A program made the position numbers and the translations under genes. DNA of 64,000 nucleotides from an uncultured Candidatus Rokubacteria bacterium (GTDB lineage Bacteria > Methylomirabilota > Methylomirabilia > Rokubacteriales > CSP1-6): assembly GCA_963747235.1 (NCBI GenBank), contig CAVVEU010000008.1, positions 416,001 through 480,000 on the forward strand. The letters are read 5' to 3'. This document shows, one piece after another, positions 1 through 11,756 of this stretch (the stretch's first letter is position 1; every line of letters begins with the position of its first letter). Below the pieces are notes generated by a model. The model ran no database searches and was not told the DNA's origin. It saw only the letters and a program-made list of their open reading frames with translations.

Positions 1-1238
1 TCGTCAACACGACGATTCTCGACGGCAGCGGAGCGGCGCCGTTCCCCGGCGACGTGCGGGTGGAAGGCCAGCGCATCGTCGCGGTGCAGCGGGGCGGGGG
101 GCTCCCGCGCGGGGAGGCCCGGGTCATCGACGGGGTCGGCGCCACGCTGATGCCGGGGCTCATCGAGCCGCACGGCCACGTGAGCTACCCCGACGCGGCC
201 CGCAACTCCGACTTCACGCGGCTGCCGCCCGAGGAGCACCTCCTGGCGACGATTCGCAACGCCAAGACCTTGCTCGACTGCGGGTACACCAGCGTGCTCT
301 CGGCGGCCTCGGCCAAGCCGCGGCTCGACATCGTGGTCCGCAACGAGATCGAGGCCGGGCGCATCCCCGGGCCGCGTTACCTGGCCAATGGCCCGGAGAT
401 CACCGTCACCGGGGGGCTGGGCGACGAGAACGCGCTGCACCTGCCGCATCTCGAGACGCCGACCTTCGCCTGGCTGGCCGACGGGCCGGACGAGATCCGC
501 CGGGTCTGCCGGCTGCTCGTGCGCGAGGGCGTCGATCTCCTGAAGCTGAACATCTCGGGCGACACCGGGCCGCGCAACTCGCGCTCCCAGCGCGCGGTGA
601 TGAGCGACGCCGAGGTGGCCGCGGCCATGGAGGTCGCGCGGGCCGGGGCGGTGCGGGTGTGCGCCCACGCCCGCAGCGCCGAGTCGGTGAAGATGTGCGT
701 GCGGCACGGGGTGGGCATCATCTACCACGCCAATTTCGCGGACGAGGAGGCCCTCGATCTGCTCGAGGCCAATCGCGACTGGTGCTTCGTCGCCCCCGCG
801 GTGGGCCTCACCTACCAGGCGTGCTACGCGGCGAGCGAGTGGGGGTTCACGCCCGAGATGGCGCGCGAGCGCGGCCTCCTGGAGGAGCTCGAGGTCTCGG
901 TGGCCACCATGGGCCAGATGCGGAAACGCGGTATCCGGGTGCTGCCGGGTGGCGACTACGGCTTCGCCTGGAACCCGCACGGAACGTACGCGCGGGACCT
1001 GCTGCTCTTCGTGGACGTGCTCGGCTTCTCGCCGATGGAGACCCTGGTCGCGGCCACCCGGATGGGCGGCGAGATCATGGGGCGGCCCCAGGAGCTGGGG
1101 CAGGTGAAGGCGGGCTACCTCGCGGACCTGCTGCTCGTGGACGGCGACCCGCTGACCGACATCAAGCGGCTCCAGCGGCAGGACGCGCTGCTGATGATCA
1201 TGAAGGACGGCCACCTGCACAAAGGAGGAGCGCGATGA
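1..1238 (+). CDS. Metal-dependent amidohydrolase (Xaa-Pro dipeptidase/HutI-like), 5'-truncated by window edge
   Basis: Frame is open from the window start (VNTTILDGSG...). Motifs MPGLIEPHGH, CAHA, IYHANF, GGDYG, ADLLLVDGDPL. Confidence 0.85.
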   Translation, partial: VNTTILDGSGAAPFPGDVRVEGQRIVAVQRGGGLPRGEARVIDGVGATLMPGLIEPHGHVSYPDAARNSDFTRLPPEEHLLATIRNAKTLLDCGYTSVLSAASAKPRLDIVVRNEIEAGRIPGPRYLANGPEITVTGGLGDENALHLPHLETPTFAWLADGPDEIRRVCRLLVREGVDLLKLNISGDTGPRNSRSQRAVMSDAEVAAAMEVARAGAVRVCAHARSAESVKMCVRHGVGIIYHANFADEEALDLLEANRDWCFVAPAVGLTYQACYAASEWGFTPEMARERGLLEELEVSVATMGQMRKRGIRVLPGGDYGFAWNPHGTYARDLLLFVDVLGFSPMETLVAATRMGGEIMGRPQELGQVKAGYLADLLLVDGDPLTDIKRLQRQDALLMIMKDGHLHKGGAR

Positions 1239-1672
1239 CCGAGCGAGTCGTGCGGCTGTCCACCCTGATCGCGGTGCTGGGACTCATCTGGGCGGGGGCG
1301 GCCTCGGCCTAGGAGTGCAGCGGCACCATCACCGCCGACGAGGCGATGAAGGCCGAGACCGCGCGCTACGCCGCGCAGACGTCGAACGACTTCGCGGCGA
1401 TGGACAAGCTGTTCGGCAACGACCCCACGTACAAGCACTCCTCCGCGGTGAGCGACGACAAGGCGAAGTGCATCGACGCGATGCGCTCCGGCCGCACGAA
1501 GTACCGCAAGATGACCCCGAATGGCGACGCCAAGACGCGCGCGTACGGCTGCATCGCGATCATCACCGGCACCGCGGTGTACGCGGTGCCGGCGGGCGGC
1601 CAGGATCGCACCGTGCCGCTGCGCTTCACCGCGATCTGGGCGAAGCGGCCGTCGGGGCTCGAGTTCGTGTAG
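1235..1672 (+). pseudogene. Secreted NTF2-like/DUF4440 protein with in-frame TAG at 1310-1312 and apparently truncated C-terminus
   Basis: ATG 1235 gives a signal peptide ending ASA, then TAG, then in-frame ECSGTITADEAMKAE...YKHSS...FTAIWAKRPSGLEFV*. The SnoaL/NTF2-like pattern ends abruptly. Confidence 0.6.
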
Positions 1673-1977
1673 CCCTCCTCGGAGGAGGGGGCACCCGCTC
1701 TAGTGAAGGTGTCCTTACACGGTGACCCCCTCGACGGAGAATCTCGGCCGAATTTAGTTGAAAACCGGCCGGGGACTGGCGCAAGATTTCACTGCGTTTA
1801 TTCCACGTCCTCCTCCCCGGTGGACGGTTGGAGTGGCTGGCGATGATGAGGACTCTGAAGGCCGGCGAGACACCAGAGGGCCCGAGCAGAAGCGCGTCAT
1901 GTCCATGAAGCGTGACTGGTCTGCGATGCGACGGGAGGCAAGGCGGTAGTTCATTCGGAATCGACGGAGAGGCTGCG

Positions 1978-2631
1978 ATGGGACGCAAGAAGCCGGCGAG
2001 AATCGACGCGAAGACCTTCCTGACGAAGGCGGGCACGGGCCGGTCGGTCTCCGGGTACCGGAAGAATCAGGTGATCTTCGCCCAGGGCGATCCGGCGGAC
2101 GCGGTGTTCTACCTCGAGCGAGGGCAGGTCAAGCTGGCGGTGCTCTCGAAAGGGGGGAAATCCGCGATCGTGGCCCTGCTCGGTCCCGGAGACTTCTTCG
2201 GCGAAGGGTGTCTCGCGGGCCAGCCCCTTCGCATGGCCAGCGCGTCGGCGATGACCGACGTGTCGCTGGTGCGGATCGCGCGGCAGGCCATGATCCGTCT
2301 GCTCCACGAGCGGTCACCGTTCGCCGAGCGCTTCATGGCCCACCTGCTGGCCCGCAACGTGCGCTTCGAGGAAGACCTGGTGGATCAGCTCTTCAACTCG
2401 AGCGAGAAGCGCCTGGCTCGGGTGCTCCTGCTCCTGGCCCGCTTTGGCAAGGAAGGGACAACCGAGCCGGTGATCCCGAAGATCAGCCAGGAGGTCCTGG
2501 CTGAAATGGTCGGGACCACCCGGCCGCGGATCAGCGGGTTCATGAACAAGTTCCGGAAGCTCGGCTTCATCGACTACAACGGCGGCCTGCACATCCACAG
2601 CTCGCTACTCAACGTCCTCCTGCACGCGTGA
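1978..2631 (+). CDS. Crp/Fnr family transcriptional regulator
   Basis: cNMP domain (IFAQGDPADAVFY, GDFFGEGCL), SEKRLAR, C-terminal HTH (SQEVLAEMVGTTRPRIS). GGAGAGG RBS before ATG 1978. Confidence 0.93.
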   Translation: MGRKKPARIDAKTFLTKAGTGRSVSGYRKNQVIFAQGDPADAVFYLERGQVKLAVLSKGGKSAIVALLGPGDFFGEGCLAGQPLRMASASAMTDVSLVRIARQAMIRLLHERSPFAERFMAHLLARNVRFEEDLVDQLFNSSEKRLARVLLLLARFGKEGTTEPVIPKISQEVLAEMVGTTRPRISGFMNKFRKLGFIDYNGGLHIHSSLLNVLLHA

Positions 2632-2641
2632 GGCGGGGGAC

Positions 2642-4276
<1,635 letters not shown>

Positions 4277-4312
4277 TCATGGGTGCGAACGGTAGGACTG
4301 CGGCGGAGCCGG

Positions 4313-4621
4313 TTAGGAGTTGAGGATGCCGAGAACGTCCTCCTCCTTCATGATGAGGTACTCCTCGCCGTTCACCGTGACCTCGCTCCCGGAGTACTTG
4401 CCGAAGAGGACGCGATCGCCCGCCTTGACGTCGAGCGGGGTCTTCTTGCCGTCCTCGGAGACCTTGCCCTTGCCCACCGCGATGACCTTGCCCTCCTGCG
4501 GCTTTTCCTTCGCGCTGTCGGGGATGATGATGCCGCTCTTCCGCGCGGGCTCCTCGTCGATCCGCTTGAGCAGGACACGGTCGTGGAGCGGGTGCAGAGT
4601 CATCTTCTTGTCTTGAGCCAT
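4313..4621 (-). CDS. groS: Co-chaperonin GroES
   Basis: [20 protein letters not shown]...[22 protein letters not shown]...KYSGSEV. AAGGAGAGG RBS upstream of ATG 4621. The listed ORF is over-extended. Confidence 0.98.
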
Positions 4622-4687
4622 GGTGCCTCTCCTTGGTGGGGGGAGAACTGGTTGGCCCCGAGGGTAGCAGCCCCGCCGGACGCCCGC

Positions 4688-4753
4688 CCATTGGACTTTG
4701 GTCCAATGGCGCATGTTCCGTTCGACACACATCGGGTTGTTCAGTTCGGCACA
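4688..4753. promoter_or_regulatory. Putative operators in the groES/kinase divergent intergenic region: palindrome CCATTGGAC-N4-GTCCAATGG and two TGT-N10-ACA boxes
   Basis: Perfect 9-bp inverted repeat at 4688-4709. TGTTCCGTTCGACACA (4714-4729) and TGTTCAGTTCGGCACA (4738-4753) are 14/16 identical. Confidence 0.5.
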
Positions 4754-4843
4754 GACCTTAAATGGGGGCTCGTAGTGTACTGGCTTTCTTAGTCTTGGTG
4801 GACGTACCGCACCCGGGGGACACCTGGCGAATGGGAGGCCCTT

Positions 4844-7359
4844 ATGAGTGTGATGACACAGCGTGCGGACATTCTGATCGTGGACGATGACCCCGGCATG
4901 CTCGAGACGCTCGGGGATGTGCTCTCGCGGGAGGGCCATCGGGTCCACTCCGCGAACCGCGGCAGCGCCGCGCTCAGCCGGCTGATCCAGTCGCCCCCGG
5001 TGGACGTGGCCATCGTCGACTTCAAGCTGCCGGACATCTCGGGCATCGAGCTGCTGGGCAGCTTCAAGGCCAGCTCGCCCGACACCGAGGTGATCCTCAT
5101 CACCGGGTACGGCTCGCTCGCGACCGCGCTGGAGGCCATCGAGGGGCAGGTCGCGTCGTATCTCGTCAAGCCGCTCGACGTCGACCATCTCCTCAAGACG
5201 GTCGAGCAGGCCCTGGCCCGGCAGCGGCTCGTTCGGGCCCTGCGCGAGTCGGAGGAGCGGTACCGGCTCGTCACCGACGCCCTGACCGAGGCGGTCCTGC
5301 TCCTGAACCCCAGCGGCCACGTGGTGCTGGCCAACCGGTATGCCGAGACCCTCACCGCGTACGGCGAGGCCGAGCTCCGGGACCAGCCGATCGTCCAGCT
5401 CTTGACCCCGGACGGCGGGGAGCGCGTGACGGCCCGGCTCGAGGCCGCGCGGCGCGGCGAGGAAGCGCCGCCCTTCGAGTGCGAGCTCCTCCGGCAGGAC
5501 GGCACCCGGGTGTGGATCGAGGCCACCGTGAGCCGGGTCACGAAGTCGGAGCGGATCGTGGGCTATCTCACGGTGGCGCGTGACATCAGCGACCGCCGGC
5601 GGGGCACGCGGGCCACCCGGGCCATGGCCCAGGTCGGACGGGACCTCTGGCCCCCCTGGACGTTGGGTCGGCCGCGGACCGCATCGTCACGGCCGTGGTC
5701 GAGGTCTTCCAGGGCCGGCGGGCCGTGCTGTACGAGATCGACGCCGCGTCCCTGGTCTGCGTGGCGGCCGCCGGCTCGGGAGATGCCAGGAGCTGGGTAG
5801 GTTGGCGCCTGCCGTCCGGCGTCGGGATCGCGTGGCGGGCGCTGGCGGAAGACCGGACCGTGACCTCGGCGGAGACGCCCGAGTCGGCCCTCCCCGTCGG
5901 CGCCGACCCGCGGCTCGTCGAGGAGGAGACCGAGTCCACCGTGGCGCTGCCGCTGCGGGCCAGGGGGCAGCTCCTCGGCGTCCTCGTGCTGGGCGGCGGC
6001 GCGCATCGGGTGTTCGGCGAGGCCGAGATCGAGCTCCTGAGCGTGTTCGGCGCCCAGGCGGCGCTGATTCTCCAGAACGCGCACCTCTTCGCCAAGAGCG
6101 AGCGGCGCCGGCGGGTGGCCGAGCGCCTGGCCGAGATCGCGAACCTCCTGCCGCAGTCGCTGGCCGTCGAGGAGGTCGGGCAGCGCATCGCGGACGGTGT
6201 CTTCGCGGTGCTGGACGTCCGGGTCGCCGCCGTGTTCGGGCTCGACCGGGCCACCGCCGATCCCGTCGTCGTCGCGGTCTCGGGCGACACGGAGCTGGGT
6301 AACCGGCCCGAGATCGTGTTCCCCGAGGCCGCCGGGATGATCGATCTTGCGGTCCGGGACCGCCAGCCCGTGCTGACGCCGGACATCCTGATGGAGCCGA
6401 GGGTCTCGCTCACCCCGGAGCTGCGGGCGGCGATCGAGGCGGCCCAGTATCACGCCGTGCTCGCGGTTCCGCTCATCGTGCAGGATCGGGTGATCGGGGC
6501 CCTCGGCGTGGGCGACCTCGCGGGACGGTCCTTCGGCGCGGAGGAGATCGAGATCGTTCGCGCCTTCGCCGATCAGGCCGCCATCGTGCTGGAGAACCAT
6601 CAGCTCTACGGAGAGCTGCGCGAAGCGCTGACCGCGGTCCGCTCGTCGCAGGAGCAGCTCGTCGTGACCGAGCGCCTGCAGGCGGTGGGCACGCTGGCCG
6701 CCGGGGTCACCCACTACGTGAACAACGTGCTGCAGGCGGTCCTGGGCAGCGCCCAGCTTCTCCTCCGCGAATCCACGGAGCCCGGAGTCCGGAAGCGACT
6801 CGAAACGCTCGAGAGGACCACGATGGATGCCGCGGACATCATGCGACGGGTGAAGTCCTTCACCGAGGCCACGACGCTCTCGGACGCCATGCCGCTCGAC
6901 CTGAACCGGCTCGTGCGGGACCTGCTCAATGCCCGGGCAACCCCGTGGGCGCCCCTGGTGTCCGCCGGAACGATCGAGGTGGCCTTCGAGCCCGGCGAGA
7001 TCTCGGAGGTGCTGGCCCTGCCCGCGCCGCTCCGCGAGGTGCTCGTGGCCTTGATCCTCAACGCGGTCGAGGCGCTGCCGGCCGGTGGCCGGATCGCGCT
7101 CCGGACGTGGGCCACACCCGAGGCCGTCTACTGCGCGGTCGCCGATTCCGGCAAGGGCCTGTCCGACGAGGTGCGGCACCGCGCGCTGGAGCCCTTCTTC
7201 ACCACGAAGGGCCCTCGACACCAGGGGCTCGGGCTGAGCCTGGCGTACGGGATCATCCGGCGGCACCGCGGCGAGCTCGAGATCCCGCGGGACGAAGGGC
7301 AGGGCGGCATCGTGACCTTCCATCTGCCGCCTCACCGTCATAACGGCGGGAGGCCGTAG
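4844..7359 (+). CDS. Hybrid sensor histidine kinase (REC-PAS-GAF-GAF-HisKA-HATPase), frameshift near 5650
   Basis: ILIVDDD...AIVDFKLPD...YLVKP receiver; PAS ([17 protein letters not shown]); two GAFs; H-box GVTHYVNN; [19 protein letters not shown]. Confidence 0.88.
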
Positions 7360-7375
7360 TCTTCCTCTCGCCCGG

Positions 7376-7545
7376 ATGACTCCCCGGGCAGGATCCTCGT
7401 CCTCGACGACGATCGCCACGCTGGCGCGGGTCGGGCTCGACCTCCTGACGACCAGCCCGGCGGACGTCGCGATCGGCGCGCTCGATCAGGGCGCCACCTT
7501 GAGGCTCACGACCGACTGCCTGGTCGAGCTGGACGGCTTGCGTCT
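7376..7545 (+). pseudogene. Degenerate response-regulator receiver remnant
   Basis: Pieces in different frames read PGRILVLDDD, GLDLLTTSPADVAI and ALDQGA, i.e. a receiver domain with internal deletions. Confidence 0.4.
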
Positions 7546-7906
7546 ACTTCACGCGCTCCAGCTTGGCCGACCCGCGTCCGTCCGCTCGCACGAAGAAGAG
7601 CACGTCCTTGCCGCCCTCCTGGGACAGGGTGACGGTTCCCGCCGAGTTGGCTGACTGAAACGACGTCTTGCCGCCGGCGGTGGTGATCTTCCCGGCCGTC
7701 TTGGTCCCGTTCGCCGAGATGCCCTCGTAGGAGCCGTCCGGCTTGATCCGGATGGCCGCCGCCGAGGTCCCGCCGATCGAGCGCCAGTCGCCGGTCAGGC
7801 TCTTCACGTTGGCGATCGGCTTGTCCGGTGCCGCGAAGGCAACGGTGGCCAGGCTCAGGACGAGCAGGCCCACCACGAGTGGAAACCGCATCATTTCTGT
7901 CGCCAT
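7544..7906 (-). CDS. Hypothetical secreted protein
   Basis: Signal peptide (LVVGLLVLSLATVAFA), then a beta-rich domain (LTGDWRS...DGSY). GC-typical codon usage. Confidence 0.7.
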   Translation of the reverse strand: MATEMMRFPLVVGLLVLSLATVAFAAPDKPIANVKSLTGDWRSIGGTSAAAIRIKPDGSYEGISANGTKTAGKITTAGGKTSFQSANSAGTVTLSQEGGKDVLFFVRADGRGSAKLERVK

Positions 7907-8217
7907 AGTCTCTGTCGCTCCAGTTCGGCGGCTTTCTGAGCCTTGTAGGACTCCTGCTGGGCCGCGGTGCCGCGGTACAGGTCGTCACGCCGCTTCGTCT
8001 CCCGCGCGCCGTCACTGAGGGCCGGCTGGCCGACTCCGGTCGGCCCGATCCAGACCGCGGCATCGCGGTAGTCCGCGGGGACGTCGAGCTTGTACTGCAC
8101 GACCTTGCTGACGCCGTCGGCGTCCGCGTACCGGTACTGGGCGCCCGCCTCCCCGGCGACGAGCAGGATGCCCACACCGAGTCCCGTGGCCGCTGCGAAT
8201 CGTACGGATCGTCTCAT
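7891..8217 (-). CDS. Hypothetical secreted protein
   Basis: Signal peptide ending AGA, then QYRYADADG...VPADYR. GGGGAG RBS upstream. Confidence 0.65.
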   Translation of the reverse strand: MRRSVRFAAATGLGVGILLVAGEAGAQYRYADADGVSKVVQYKLDVPADYRDAAVWIGPTGVGQPALSDGARETKRRDDLYRGTAAQQESYKAQKAAELERQRLWRQK

Positions 8218-8369
8218 GATGGTGTACTCCCCTCGGTGAAATATGTGCAGGTTCGGGGCCAGAACCGCCGCGTGACATTTGGCCTACTTGGGGCCACGAG
8301 AGCCGGCCGGCGTGACGGCGAGTGTCGCTCGGCTTGACGAAGCGCCGGTTTGGGCTGATCCTCGGGCGC

Positions 8370-9192
8370 ATGAGCACGATCACCACGAAGGACGGCACCC
8401 AGATCTACTACAAGGACTGGGGCAGCGGGCAGCCCGTCGTCTTCAGCCACGGCTGGCCGCTGAGCGCGGACGCGTGGGAAGACCAGATGCTCTTTCTCGG
8501 CGCCCGCGGCTACCGCTGCATCGCCCACGACCGCCGGGGCCACGGCCGGTCGAGCCAGCCCTGGAACGGCAACGAGATGGACACCTACGCCGACGATCTC
8601 GCGGCGCTGGTCGACGCGCTCGATCTCGAAGAGCGCGATCCACGTCGGCCACTCCACCGGCGGCGGCGAGGTCGCCCGCTACCTCGGCCGCCACGGCACG
8701 AAGCGGGTGGCCAAGGCGGTGCTGATCGGCGCGGTGCCGCCGATCATGCTCAAGACGGCCGCCAACCCGGGCGGCCTGCCGATGGACGCCTTCGACCAGA
8801 TCCGCACCGGCGTCCTCGCCGACCGCGCGCAGTTCTTCAAGGATCTCTCCACGCCGTTCTACGGCGCCAACCGGCCGGGCGCCAAGGTCTCGCAGGGCCT
8901 GCGCGACTCGTTCTGGCTCCAGGGGATGCTGGCCGGCTTCAAGGGCGTCTTCGACTGCATCAAGGCCTTCTCGGAGACGGACTTCACCGAGGACCTCAAG
9001 AAGATCGACGTGCCGACGCTGATCCTGCACGGCGACGACGACCAGATCGTGCCGATCGGCGCCTCGGCGATGCTGTCGTCGAAGCTCGTGAAGGGCGCCA
9101 CGCTGAAGGTCTACCCGGGCCTGCCGCACGGGATGTGCTCGACGCACAAGGTTCAGATCAACGCGGACCTGCTCGCGTTCCTCCAGGCATGA
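8370..9192 (+). CDS. cpo: Non-heme chloroperoxidase/arylesterase-type alpha/beta hydrolase, frameshift near 8630
   Basis: [31 protein letters not shown], nucleophile GHSTGGGE (shifted frame), [12 protein letters not shown]. Confidence 0.9.
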
Positions 9193-9656
9193 GCGAGCCC
9201 CTCGCGCGGCGCGGGCTGCTGATCGGCGCCGTGACCGTCGCGCTCGCCGCGGCGGGCGCGCGTCTGGCCGGCGCGGCGGCGAAGCCCACGATCACGGTCC
9301 ACAAGTCCCCGACCTGAGGCTGCTGCGCGGCGTGGGTCGGGCACCTGCGCGCAAGTGGTTACGCGGTGAAGACGGAGGACAACGAGGATCTCGCGCCCAT
9401 CAAGCGGAAGCTCGGCGTGCCGCGGGCGCTGCAGAGCTGCCACACCGCGGTGGTCGAGGGGTACGTCGTCGAGGGGCACGTCCCCGCCGATCTGATCGAC
9501 CGCCTGCTGCGCGAGCGGCCCTCCGTGGTCGGCCTCGCGGTGCCGGGCATGCCCATCGGCTCCCCGGGCATGGAGGCGCCCGGGCAGGCCGCCGAGCGCT
9601 ACCAGGTGCTCGCGTTCGATCAGAAGGGCCGCACCACCATCTTCGCCAGCCGCTGA
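9189..9656 (+). CDS. Exported DUF411-family metal-binding/thioredoxin-fold protein, probable selenoprotein (Sec at TGA 9315-9317, UGCC motif)
   Basis: ATG 9189 overlaps the upstream stop. Tat-like RRGLL leader, then [20 protein letters not shown], continuing in frame into [18 protein letters not shown]...[15 protein letters not shown]. The family motif is KSPTCGCC. Confidence 0.85.
9330..9350 (+). promoter_or_regulatory. Putative bacterial SECIS hairpin
   Basis: GCGTGGGT-[CGGGC]-ACCTGCGC: 8-bp stem (two G-U pairs) starting 12 nt after the TGA, with G at loop position 2. Confidence 0.6.
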
Positions 9657-9661
9657 CGCCC

Positions 9662-10855
9662 GTGCCTGCGTTCGGCGCGCGCGAGGGTCACGGGCCCCTG
9701 AGTGGCGTCACGGTGCTCGATCTGAGCGGCTACGTGGCCGGTCCCTATGGCTGCACCCTGCTCGGCGATCAGGGCGCCCTCGTCATCAAGGTCGAGCCGC
9801 CCGAGGGCGACAACCTCCGCAACTACCCGTCCACGCTCCCCGGCGAGAGCCGGGCGTTCCTCGGAGTCAATCGCAACAAGCACGGCATCGGCCTCGACCT
9901 CAAGCATCCCGACGGCCTGGGCGTGCTGCGCCGATTGGTCTCCCGCGCCGACGTGCTGGTCCACAACTTCCGGCCGTCGGTGCCCGCGCGGCTCGGCATC
10001 GACTACGACCGGATGCGGGCGGTGAACGAGCGCCTGATCTACTGCGCGCTGACCGGCTACGGCGACCGGGGCCCGCTCAAGGATCGCGCCGGGTACGACC
10101 AGGTGCTCCAGACCATGACCGGCATCGCGGTCGAGCAGGGCAAGCCGGGCGATCCCGCGATCGTGTACGGCTCCGCGGTGGACTTCTACTCGGCCTCGAT
10201 GCTGGCCTTCGCGGTGTCCTCCGCGCTCTTCGAGCGCTCGCGCACCGGGCGCGGCCAGTACGTGAGCGTGTCGCTCCTGCGCAGCGCGCTCACGATGCAG
10301 GCCACCCGGCTGGTGTGGGTGGACGGAGAGCCGCGCGACGTCTGGCGCGACATGCGCTCGGGAGGCATCACCGGGATCCACCCGACGAAGCACGGCAGCC
10401 TCTACATCTCGGCCAACACGCCGCACTTCTGGCAGGCCCTGTGCGAGCTGACCGGGCTGGCCGACCTCGCGAGCGATCCGCGGTTCGACACGGTGCGGAA
10501 GCGGGCGGAGCACGAGGCGGTGCTCGTCCCGCGGCTGCGCGCGGCGCTGCAGGCGCGCACCGCGGTCGAGTGGGAGGCGCACTTCGGCGAGCGCGTGCCC
10601 TGCGCGGCGGCGCGTCCGGTGGAGGACATGTTCGACCATCCGCAGGTGGCCGCGGAGGGCATCCTGGCCAGCTTCGAGCACCCGGGGGTGGGGCACTACC
10701 GCGGCATGGCGCATCCGGTGCGCTTCGGCGATGGCCCACCGCCCGCGCCCTTCGCGGCGCCGCAGCTCGGGCAGCACTCGCGGGAGATCCTGGCGAGCCT
10801 CGGCTACGCCGACGCGGAGATCGAGCGGCTGCGTGGCGCGGGCGCGGTGGTCTGA
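9662..10855 (+). CDS. CaiB/BaiF family III CoA-transferase
   Basis: GPLSGVTVLDLSGYVAGPY, GALVIKVEPPEGD, NRNK, ADVLVHNFRP, AGYD, APQLGQHSREIL. Confidence 0.93.
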   Translation: MPAFGAREGHGPLSGVTVLDLSGYVAGPYGCTLLGDQGALVIKVEPPEGDNLRNYPSTLPGESRAFLGVNRNKHGIGLDLKHPDGLGVLRRLVSRADVLVHNFRPSVPARLGIDYDRMRAVNERLIYCALTGYGDRGPLKDRAGYDQVLQTMTGIAVEQGKPGDPAIVYGSAVDFYSASMLAFAVSSALFERSRTGRGQYVSVSLLRSALTMQATRLVWVDGEPRDVWRDMRSGGITGIHPTKHGSLYISANTPHFWQALCELTGLADLASDPRFDTVRKRAEHEAVLVPRLRAALQARTAVEWEAHFGERVPCAAARPVEDMFDHPQVAAEGILASFEHPGVGHYRGMAHPVRFGDGPPPAPFAAPQLGQHSREILASLGYADAEIERLRGAGAVV

Positions 10856-10857
10856 TC

Positions 10858-11756
10858 GTGGCGGACCTCCTCATGCGCAGCAAGCTCTTCGTGCCCGCCT
10901 CGCGGCCCGAGCTCTTCGCGAAGGCCCTGGCCGGCGCCGCCGACGCGCTCTCGTTCGACCTGGAGGACGCGGTCCAGGAGAGCCGGAAGGCCGACGCGCG
11001 CGGGACGCTGGAAGCCTTCCTGCGCCAGGCCTCCGAGCGCCCGCCGGGCAAGATTCTCATCGTGCGGGTGAACGGGCTGACGACGCCGCACTTCGAGGCC
11101 GACCTGCGGGCGGTGGCGTGGCCGGCGGTGGACATGATCAACCTGCCCGAAGCCCGAGTCCGCGGAGGACGTGCGGGCCGCGGCGGCCGCGCTCGCCCGG
11201 GTGGAGGCGGAGCGGCGGATCGGGCGCCCCATCGGCATTCTCGCGAACATCGAATCGCCGCGGGGGCTGCGGCTGGCCCTCGAGATCGCGACGGCGCACC
11301 CGCGGGTCGTCGGGCTCCAGCTCGGCCTGGGCGATCTCTTCGAGCCCTACGGCATCGACCGGGCCGACGCCCGCGCGGTCCACGCCACGCAGCTCACCGT
11401 GCGCCTCGCCGCGGCCGAGGCGGGCATCTGGGCGTGCGACACGGTCTACGGGACGGTGGCGGATCCCGAGGGCTTCACGCGCGAGGCGGAAGCGCGCGCG
11501 GCGGCTCGGCTTCATCGGCAAGTCCTGCATCCATCCCACCCAGGTCCCGCTCGCCAATGCGGTGTTCCGCCCGAGCGACGCCGAGATCGCCGCGGCCCTC
11601 AGGGTGGTCGAGGCCGCGCGCGGCGCCGAGCGCAACGGGGTCGGGGCCTTCCTGGTGGACGGCCGCATGATCGACATCCCCTTCGTCAAGCGCGCCGAGT
11701 CGATTCTGGGCGCGGCCCGCCGGCTCGGCCTGGTCCCCGCCGACCGCGGGGCCTGA
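10858..11756 (+). CDS. CitE-like (HpcH/HpaI) CoA-ester lyase, frameshifts near 11150 and 11495
   Basis: MRSKLFVPASRPE, FDLEDAV, VRVN, NIESPRG, GLGDL, GFIGKSCIHPTQV, VDGRMIDIP. Confidence 0.88.

Follow-up and report, generated by a model that had tools for sequence, protein, structure and literature searches.

A probable selenocysteine-containing form of the DUF411/CopG family in Rokubacteria

The window described here is a stretch of 64,000 nucleotides from an uncultured Candidatus Rokubacteria bacterium (GenBank assembly GCA_963747235.1, contig CAVVEU010000008.1, positions 416,001 to 480,000 of the forward strand). It carries a gene of the DUF411/CopG family which probably encodes a selenoprotein. 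The gene occupies a single reading frame on the forward strand, 9189-9656; when TGA is translated as selenocysteine (Sec, U), the sole internal stop codon is seen to be the TGA at 9315-9317, which is codon 43. Mechanical calling of open reading frames (ORFs) divides the gene into a leader, which ends at 9317, and a 96-residue ORF which starts from a GTG at 9366. A sequence-only reading, made by a model from the letters and a list of ORFs, had proposed that the ORF track splits one gene and that leader and body are in frame across the TGA; the coordinates and the frame were confirmed. Both the gene and its upstream neighbour terminate with TGA, and the genetic code is therefore not reassigned. 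The features of the locus are listed below.

9189..9656, + strand: DUF411/CopG-family gene, complete, 155 residues, probable selenoprotein (ATG at 9189, Sec codon 43, stop TGA at 9654-9656)
9189..9281, + strand: predicted export signal, residues 1-31 (twin-arginine-like A-R-R-G-L-L-I, hydrophobic core, A-A-A end)
9315..9317, + strand: in-frame UGA, residue 43, probably read as selenocysteine (Cys/TGA alignment and recurrence)
9315..9326, + strand: U-G-C-C motif (U43, C45, C46), counterpart of the CxCC copper-cluster motif of CopG
9330..9350, + strand: hairpin resembling a selenocysteine insertion sequence (SECIS) (8-bp stem, 9330-9337 with 9343-9350; loop CGGGC, 9338-9342)
9438..9443, + strand: Cys84-His85, invariant in a 67-sequence alignment
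9477..9479, + strand: His97 in E-G-H-V-P, invariant in the same 67-sequence alignment
9549..9572, + strand: segment G-M-P-x-G-S-P-G-M, in which Met121 and Met128 are invariant and correspond to the two Met ligands of copper given for CopG in PMC7558416 and PMC8456105
8370..9192, + strand: alpha/beta-hydrolase gene lying upstream, whose stop TGA (9190-9192) shares bases with the start codon of the probable selenoprotein gene (ATGA, 9189-9192)

Family, fold and leader of the product

The product (P0001) matches the Pfam family DUF411 (PF04214) with an E-value of 4.5e-28 and 97.2 bits (cut-off 27), over model positions 1-48 of 48; no NCBIfam model matches it. CopG of Pseudomonas aeruginosa (PDB 6WIS and 6WJE) is its only relative of solved structure, and aligns with residues 34-153 at an E-value of 8.2e-34. 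Residue 43 is aligned on the first Cys of C-G-C-C in 6WIS. An AlphaFold model built on the 67-sequence alignment has a predicted local distance difference test score (pLDDT) of 93.5. Foldseek matches this model to 6wis_A with an E-value of 7.9e-17, a template modelling (TM) score of 0.92 normalised to the target, a root mean square deviation of 1.5 Å and 46% identity; the next matches are thioredoxins and NrdH-type redoxins, with E-values of 0.03 or more. The family match and the CopG fold thus bear out the assignment to DUF411 made by the sequence-only reading.

CopG is described in the literature (PMC7558416, PMC8456105, PMC8872213) as a periplasmic thioredoxin-like protein in which CxCC and two Met residues hold a tetranuclear copper cluster. 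In the same sources it is associated with anaerobic copper resistance as a Cu(I)/Cu(II) oxidoreductase, and it may pass copper on. Alignment of the window's product with 66 Cys homologues gives the following invariant columns: C43 (UGA), C45, C46, W49, C84, H85, G96, H97, P99, G115, M121, G124, G127 and M128. In the AlphaFold model, residue 43 follows strand 34-39 and sits at the N-terminus of helix 44-55; this is the placement of the attacking Cys in a thioredoxin CxxC motif (U43...C46). The three-ligand C-x-C-C motif appears complete only if Sec is accepted as the equivalent of Cys at position 43. The family comprises 4,477 representatives at 50% identity (E-value of 0.001 or less). CxCC is found in 148 of the best 150 of these 4,477, and the other two are N-terminally truncated. 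One homologue among P0152-P0271 has G-G-C-C, in which Gly replaces the first Cys or Sec of the motif.

The leader looks like a signal peptide. It forms a helix (residues 7-24) in the AlphaFold model, with lower pLDDT than the folded domain which follows, and its RR pair is retained in many relatives within the order, as judged by tblastn. A cleavage site and export by the twin-arginine translocation (Tat) route are suggested, the latter from the motif. The Tat-signal models of Pfam and NCBIfam gave no match to the product at an E-value of 0.01 or less.

Recurrence and decoding of the in-frame TGA

The gene is found in 33 of 61 related genomes of the order. There are 39 matched places, 27 of which contain exactly one TGA and 12 of which contain none. 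Counted per genome, the TGA form is present in 25 of the 33 gene-bearing relatives and Cys forms only in the remaining eight. At the 33 loci compared by tblastn (L057 and L058 among them being one place), the stop falls on the motif in all 25 stop-bearing loci, where it is also the only stop within the match; the other eight loci have Cys. Cys-containing homologues, namely these eight Cys-form relatives, 6WIS and the 66 Cys homologues above, place a Cys on the TGA, in keeping with the suggestion of the sequence-only reading that Sec stands for the first Cys. Across the phylum (251 genomes searched), the gene is present in 65 genomes, all within two families of one order, and one TGA is found at 58 of 74 matched places. 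Two unpublished genomes contribute to these figures: G029 is included in the counts for the phylum and the order, as well as in those given below for stem pairing and selA in the order, and G243 in the count for the phylum. Conclusions are unchanged when both are left out; the permission of the depositors is needed before publication.

A scan for the degenerate pattern P-x-UGA-G-C-C-x-x-W-x-x-H covered 185,579 species, with one genome per species. The pattern fixes W and H, and forms with other residues at those positions escape it. Among the 120 matches listed, at least 106 are DUF411 homologues with TGA at the position of codon 43, and the downstream frame is intact in these 106; the other 14 listed matches are due to chance and have no DUF411 homology. 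The 106 homologues among the matches listed are labelled as at least 12 phyla: Acidobacteriota (34), Gemmatimonadota (22), Chloroflexota (11), Pseudomonadota (11), Rokuibacteriota (5) and Methylomirabilota (4), Myxococcota (3), Thermodesulfobacteriota (3), Actinomycetota (2), Binatota (2), Campylobacterota (1), Tectimicrobiota (1) and Verrucomicrobiota (1), with six unplaced; these labels are the records' own, and some bin labels (e.g. Streptomycetaceae, Bifidobacteriaceae) are doubtful. In one Acidobacteriota homologue (L188, G260:C1:1497770-1498174), two TGA codons are reported inside the match.

The part of the gene downstream of the TGA is conserved as protein. In ten pairs drawn from five genomes of the genus, the ratio of nonsynonymous to synonymous substitution rates (dN/dS) is 0.11-0.26 over codons 44-155. 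Over codons 44-59, all of them ahead of any alternative start, it is 0.05-0.68 and mostly below 0.3. The same TGA codon thus recurs in other genomes, at 25 of 33 loci of the order and in at least 106 records elsewhere among the matches listed. The sequence-only reading had allowed for a TGA shared with no homologue and a decaying downstream part; the TGA is instead widely shared and the downstream part constrained.

The machinery for Sec insertion is present in the same genome. Contig C14 carries matches to selA (578 bits) and selB (365 bits) with an adjoining tRNA-Sec (anticodon tca, 69 bits), and a match to selD (228 bits) lies on contig C27. All of these exceed the curated cut-offs, and all four of the genes selA, selB, selC and selD named by the sequence-only reading are accounted for. 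The selD match (G000:C27:46033-46945) is broken into one piece covering model positions 8-240 and another, in a different frame, covering 235-309, and a second selD-like region (C8:303114-303868) is broken into three; the split matches may be frameshifts of the draft assembly. Outside the order, selA is found above cut-off in 10 of 10 TGA-form genomes from other groups; the figure for control genomes is one of 14. Within the order it is found in 54 of 61 genomes, including 21 of the 25 with the TGA form. All eight Cys-only genomes of the order also have selA; the machinery therefore does not discriminate between the two forms within the order.

Bacterial SECIS elements are stem-loops which lie shortly downstream of the UGA and have a G in the apical loop. 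In the window, a spacer of 12 nt (9318-9329) is followed by an 8-bp stem with two adjacent G.U pairs and the loop CGGGC. This hairpin is present as the sequence-only reading described it, but it is not significant in this single sequence. Support comes from the other TGA-bearing genomes, in which it is conserved. Among 24 TGA forms of the order, stem pairing is kept in 96.4% of cells, and both partners have changed in two pairs, one from G-C to C-G and the other from U-A to C-G; the second of these changes also alters V to A and H to R. A U.G pair becomes U-A in three of the 24, and RNAalifold retains six of the eight stem pairs. In 102 distinct sequences among the matches listed, the stem is rebuilt with other sequences and in other registers, and the Burkholderiales type has a perfect 12-bp stem. 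The third base of the His52 codon, a synonymous site, covaries with its pairing partner: the codon is CAT in 13 of 21 sequences when the partner is A and in 14 of 77 when the partner is G (Fisher p 2e-4). For the control residue His85 in the same genes, the figures are nine of 21 and 24 of 77 (p 0.43); His85 is the only His-codon control, position 96 being Gly.

The hairpin can also be compared between TGA forms and Cys forms. The gene is found in 107 of 301 Burkholderiales genomes, and in five of these there is a TGA at the motif. Of the seven Burkholderiales rows with one TGA, two (G406 and G557) were not counted as Sec forms, since their TGA lies away from the motif, where they have a Cys codon. 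Measured against a synonymous-codon null, 42 Burkholderiales Cys forms have a mean z of -0.13 (Wilcoxon p 0.31), with one of the 42 at p <= 0.05. Four Burkholderiales TGA forms have z values of -2.5 to -4.2, three of them being identical across the 45 nt tested and overlapping sequences in the pooled set. When the sets are pooled, mean z is -1.29 for TGA forms (n=125) and -0.24 for Cys forms (n=50; Mann-Whitney p 1.9e-7), a contrast which became informative only after the addition of the 42 Burkholderiales Cys forms. The minimum free energy is -11.6 kcal/mol for TGA forms and -7.4 kcal/mol for Cys forms, though the Cys set has a higher G+C content at third codon positions (GC3). The direction of the contrast agrees with the presence of a SECIS element within the coding sequence. 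The covariation, the retained pairing and the association with TGA forms together answer in its favour the check for a conserved hairpin which the sequence-only reading proposed.

A number of points weigh against a Sec codon served by this stem-loop in an exported copper protein. The 61-nt fold in the window has a z of +1.59 relative to dinucleotide shuffles (196 of 200 shuffles fold at least equally well), and the window's hairpin has a z of -0.38 relative to synonymous-codon resampling at the gene's GC3. The stem core, UGGGU/ACCUG, is partly forced by the codons for W-V-x-H-L. The fold of Cys forms from the window's order is nearly as good as that of TGA forms (mean z -0.82 for eight Cys forms and -1.21 for 121 TGA forms; Mann-Whitney p 0.37), this first Cys control being too small and its members too closely related. 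The sequences compared are related and not independent, which inflates all of the p-values given for the hairpin. Rfam holds no matching family; its one match was below threshold and on the opposite strand. No selA was found in four of the 25 TGA-form genomes of the order (G005, G017, G018 and G029), which are metagenome-assembled drafts, 78-95% complete. The Tat assignment comes from the motif, with no Tat model matching. Copper genes are lacking around the window copy and at seven of 11 other loci examined. The whole case, finally, is built on sequence.

Three other explanations of the TGA can be set against this evidence. The UGA might be suppressed by an ordinary tRNA (e.g. for Trp, Cys or Arg) through near-cognate read-through, which would yield a full-length protein without selenium. 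The window hairpin, which alone is not significant, and the four TGA-form genomes in which selA was not found are compatible with this; those genomes, however, are incomplete metagenome assemblies, and selA is present in every one of the ten TGA-form genomes of other groups but in just one of the 14 controls. In addition, the TGA always falls at a redox or metal-ligand Cys which is invariant in the 66 Cys homologues, the classic Sec/Cys pairing, and a stem-loop conserved in position accompanies TGA forms and not Cys forms. Ordinary read-through is accordingly rated improbable. Termination at the UGA at 9315, which would leave a 42-residue leader peptide and a separate 96-residue DUF411 fragment from the GTG at 9366, is still less probable. 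ORF tables do divide the gene, and public sets contain forms of close relatives of 103-109 residues. However, protein-level conservation extends over codons 44-59, which precede that GTG (dN/dS mostly below 0.3), and these codons can be aligned with residues of CopG, two of the three Cys of the motif among them. Initiation at 9366 would leave out the predicted signal peptide and the entire CxCC motif, and the predicted export signal which the downstream domain needs sits in the upstream part.

It is least probable of all, and hardly credible, that the gene is a pseudogene created by a nonsense mutation or that the TGA is an assembly or sequencing error for TGC or TGT. In favour of such a reading, the assembly is a draft from a metagenome (88% complete, 4.9% contamination), the neighbouring hydrolase gene has a 1-nt insertion, and very close Cys variants (82-85% identity) occur in metagenomes. 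The same TGA codon nevertheless occurs in 25 genomes of the order and in at least 106 records from independent assemblies among the matches listed. It is the sole stop inside the match at each of the 25 stop-bearing loci, and the downstream frame is intact in the 106 listed records and under constraint in the genus (dN/dS 0.11-0.26). Decoding of UGA 43 as Sec is therefore considered highly probable on the sequence evidence. The joint explanation which best fits the observations, and which is judged very likely, is that the gene encodes a CopG/DUF411 protein, predicted to be secreted, in which UGA 43 would be decoded as Sec with the help of the downstream stem-loop. The proposal of the sequence-only reading that the product is a UxxC metal or redox selenoprotein gains support from the Cys/TGA pairing, the constraint, the machinery and the hairpin comparison.

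Genomic context and exchange of Sec and Cys

The window copy lies between the alpha/beta-hydrolase gene and a family III CoA-transferase-like gene, an order which is kept only among the closest relatives. By eye, the hydrolase resembles non-heme chloroperoxidases. It is frameshifted by a single extra G near 8628, which an alignment with three relatives of the genus places in this genome only; the frameshift reflects either a fault of assembly or a genuine pseudogene. Positions 9700-11756 of the window contain the family III CoA-transferase-like ORF followed by an ORF resembling HpcH/citrate lyase beta. The CoA-transferase is named from its translation, without a family match, and gave no NCBIfam match at an E-value of 1e-10 or less. 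It adjoins the DUF411 gene across the genus, and its orientation is opposite in some genomes.

The sequence-only reading stated that DUF411 genes often occur in copper loci. This does not hold for the window copy, but copper or cuproenzyme neighbours are found at four of the 11 other TGA-form loci annotated (L183, L185, L186 and L189). At L183, the gene order is outer-membrane efflux protein, multicopper oxidase, cupredoxin, TGA-form gene, CusF and DUF302. L186 contains a CsoR-type repressor and a CopA-type ATPase, and L185 contains DsbD_2, SCO1 and a Rieske protein. L189 (G000:C39:61300-73800) belongs to the same genome as the window. It carries a paralogue, a TGA-form DUF411 gene at about 6025-6484 which is 59% identical to the window copy, set between COX2/COX1, a cytochrome c552-like protein, cytochrome c and Rieske/cytochrome b. 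Copper-gene context is typical for DUF411/CopG but does not define the family. A third DUF411 copy in this genome (L057, G000:C42:1-2013) is frameshifted, lies at the start of its contig and is a near-duplicate of the C39 copy; it may reflect strain redundancy in the bin.

TGA forms cluster in lineage-specific clades in a FastTree phylogeny of 124 TGA and 156 Cys forms. At least 19 changes between Sec and Cys are required on this tree, compared with about 92 (minimum 82) when the labels are shuffled; the alignment is short (121 columns) and the count of 19 is rough. Metagenomes contain full-length Cys (CGCC) variants, P0152-P0158, which are 81-85% identical to the window's protein, alongside truncated TGA forms which are 90-91% identical to it; both alleles, Sec and Cys, are thus found side by side in very close relatives. 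From close relatives of the gene, public protein sets hold full-length Cys variants at 82-85% identity and also pieces of 103-109 residues which start at or just before V-G-H-L-R, or later, and are named 'hypothetical protein'. These pieces are TGA forms cut by gene callers.

A record labelled Helicobacter brantae MIT 04-9366 (L135/L179), a low-G+C isolate, contains a TGA form which is 45% identical to the window's protein, together with selA. The gene lies at about L179:5990-6356 and its hairpin is short (5 bp, loop GGUC). An AIR-synthase-like neighbour was considered as a link to selD and rejected, as it is purM (TIGR00878, 385 bits).

Proposed function and relation to known systems

In the proposed mechanism, the UGA at codon 43 would be decoded as Sec by the SelA, SelB, tRNA-Sec and SelD of the genome, and the stem-loop inside the coding sequence, which starts 12 nt downstream, would assist the decoding. 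By analogy with CopG, the mature periplasmic protein may bind a multinuclear copper cluster via U43, C45 and C46 together with Met121 and Met128, and the copper-loaded protein may interconvert Cu(I) and Cu(II) or hand them on. A selenolate would stand where a thioredoxin-type CxxC has its N-terminal attacking Cys (U43...C46). Selenolates are more nucleophilic than thiolates and have a lower pKa. This analogy favours, with some reserve, a copper-cluster protein whose most exposed thiolate has been exchanged for a selenolate and which would act in copper redox buffering or delivery.

The product resembles CopG of P. aeruginosa in its fold, in the x-G-C-C, C-H and E-G-H-V-P elements and in the two Met positions. 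It differs in that the first motif Cys is a UGA (Sec), the signal is twin-arginine-like and the window copy has no copper-resistance neighbours. CutG of Rhodobacter capsulatus, from the cutFOG operon, is likewise a DUF411 protein with the same Cys and Met motifs and, according to PMC8456105, is linked to a multicopper oxidase. CutG, unlike the window's protein, is a Cys form. A neighbourhood of the CutG type (multicopper oxidase, cupredoxin, CusF) occurs at one TGA-form locus, L183. In that paper (PMC8456105), CutG motif mutants are reported to show the motif dispensable for CutO maturation; the physiological role of DUF411 is therefore itself unsettled. The paralogue of the window's gene lies within a heme-copper oxidase/cytochrome cluster, which suggests that a role in supplying copper to respiratory enzymes is no less likely than one in copper resistance.

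Several known selenoproteins are comparable. Sec-containing thioredoxin, glutaredoxin, DsbA-like and thiol:disulfide interchange proteins (PMC13188914) also have Sec in place of the N-terminal Cys, at helix 1 of a thioredoxin-like fold, and in these UxxC families too, Sec and Cys forms coexist among close relatives. The motif here is U-x-C-C, however, and by analogy with DUF411 it would ligate copper rather than undergo dithiol/disulfide cycling; none of the models of the thioredoxin-fold UxxC selenoprotein families matches P0001. Predicted metal-handling selenoproteins include heavy-metal P-type ATPases (UxxC), the SO_0444 Cu/Zn efflux transporter (UxC), CopZ-family 2Fe-2S proteins and YHS-domain proteins (PMC13188914). 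These share with the present protein a Sec at a presumed metal-ligand position and an association with copper or heavy-metal homeostasis; their folds and families are unrelated, no DUF411 protein is among them, and for none of them can a solved multinuclear Cu cluster serve as template. In the formate dehydrogenase FdhA and in [NiFeSe] hydrogenase, Se is a direct ligand of Mo/W or Ni (PMC13188914), whereas the metal here would, by analogy, be copper. No natural Cu-selenocysteine site is described in the literature met, in which no search was aimed specifically at that question.

The Sec form appears to be absent from current catalogues. Table 1 of a 2026 review, which covers 119 prokaryotic selenoprotein families and subfamilies (PMC13188914), contains no PF04214, DUF411 or CopG; this agrees with the impression of the sequence-only reading that DUF411 lies outside the classic selenoprotein families. 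P0001 has no match to the NCBIfam accessions used in that table. The terms PF04214, DUF411 and CopG do not occur in one supplement file, possibly incomplete, of BSepDB (PMC13326102) or in four files of deep-Sep (PMC12013277). DUF411 as a selenoprotein, or CopG with selenocysteine, is not reported in the literature covered, though subscription papers and other supplements could still mention it.

A more far-reaching interpretation is offered only tentatively and is judged less likely than not. On this view Sec would coordinate, and perhaps bridge, the metal ions of a multinuclear copper cluster, and no natural metallocluster protein of the copper-selenolate kind would precede this one. In Rokubacteria/Methylomirabilota-type soil bacteria the protein would be the default CopG form, exported in the folded state by Tat, and would provide or redox-buffer copper for respiratory cuproenzymes and not for resistance. 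Frequent switching between Sec and Cys among nearly identical relatives would reflect the availability of selenium in soil or exposure to oxygen.

The Sec form of DUF411/CopG, read in this way, is an unlisted addition to the prokaryotic selenoproteome, and a widespread one, with records labelled as at least 12 phyla among the matches listed. In one order of abundant soil bacteria, the TGA form is the majority form. Catalogues and NCBI naming models miss it, and as a result gene callers report the genes as N-terminally truncated 'hypothetical' or DUF411 proteins, without the predicted signal peptide or the metal motif. Selenium would here occupy a copper site for which a solved Cys-form template exists (6WIS), and the question of Se versus S at a metal centre is therefore testable by a U/C swap. 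The natural Sec and Cys variants at 82-85% identity, together with at least 19 switches, form a comparative series, and Helicobacter brantae (L135), which is labelled as a cultured isolate, provides an experimental handle.

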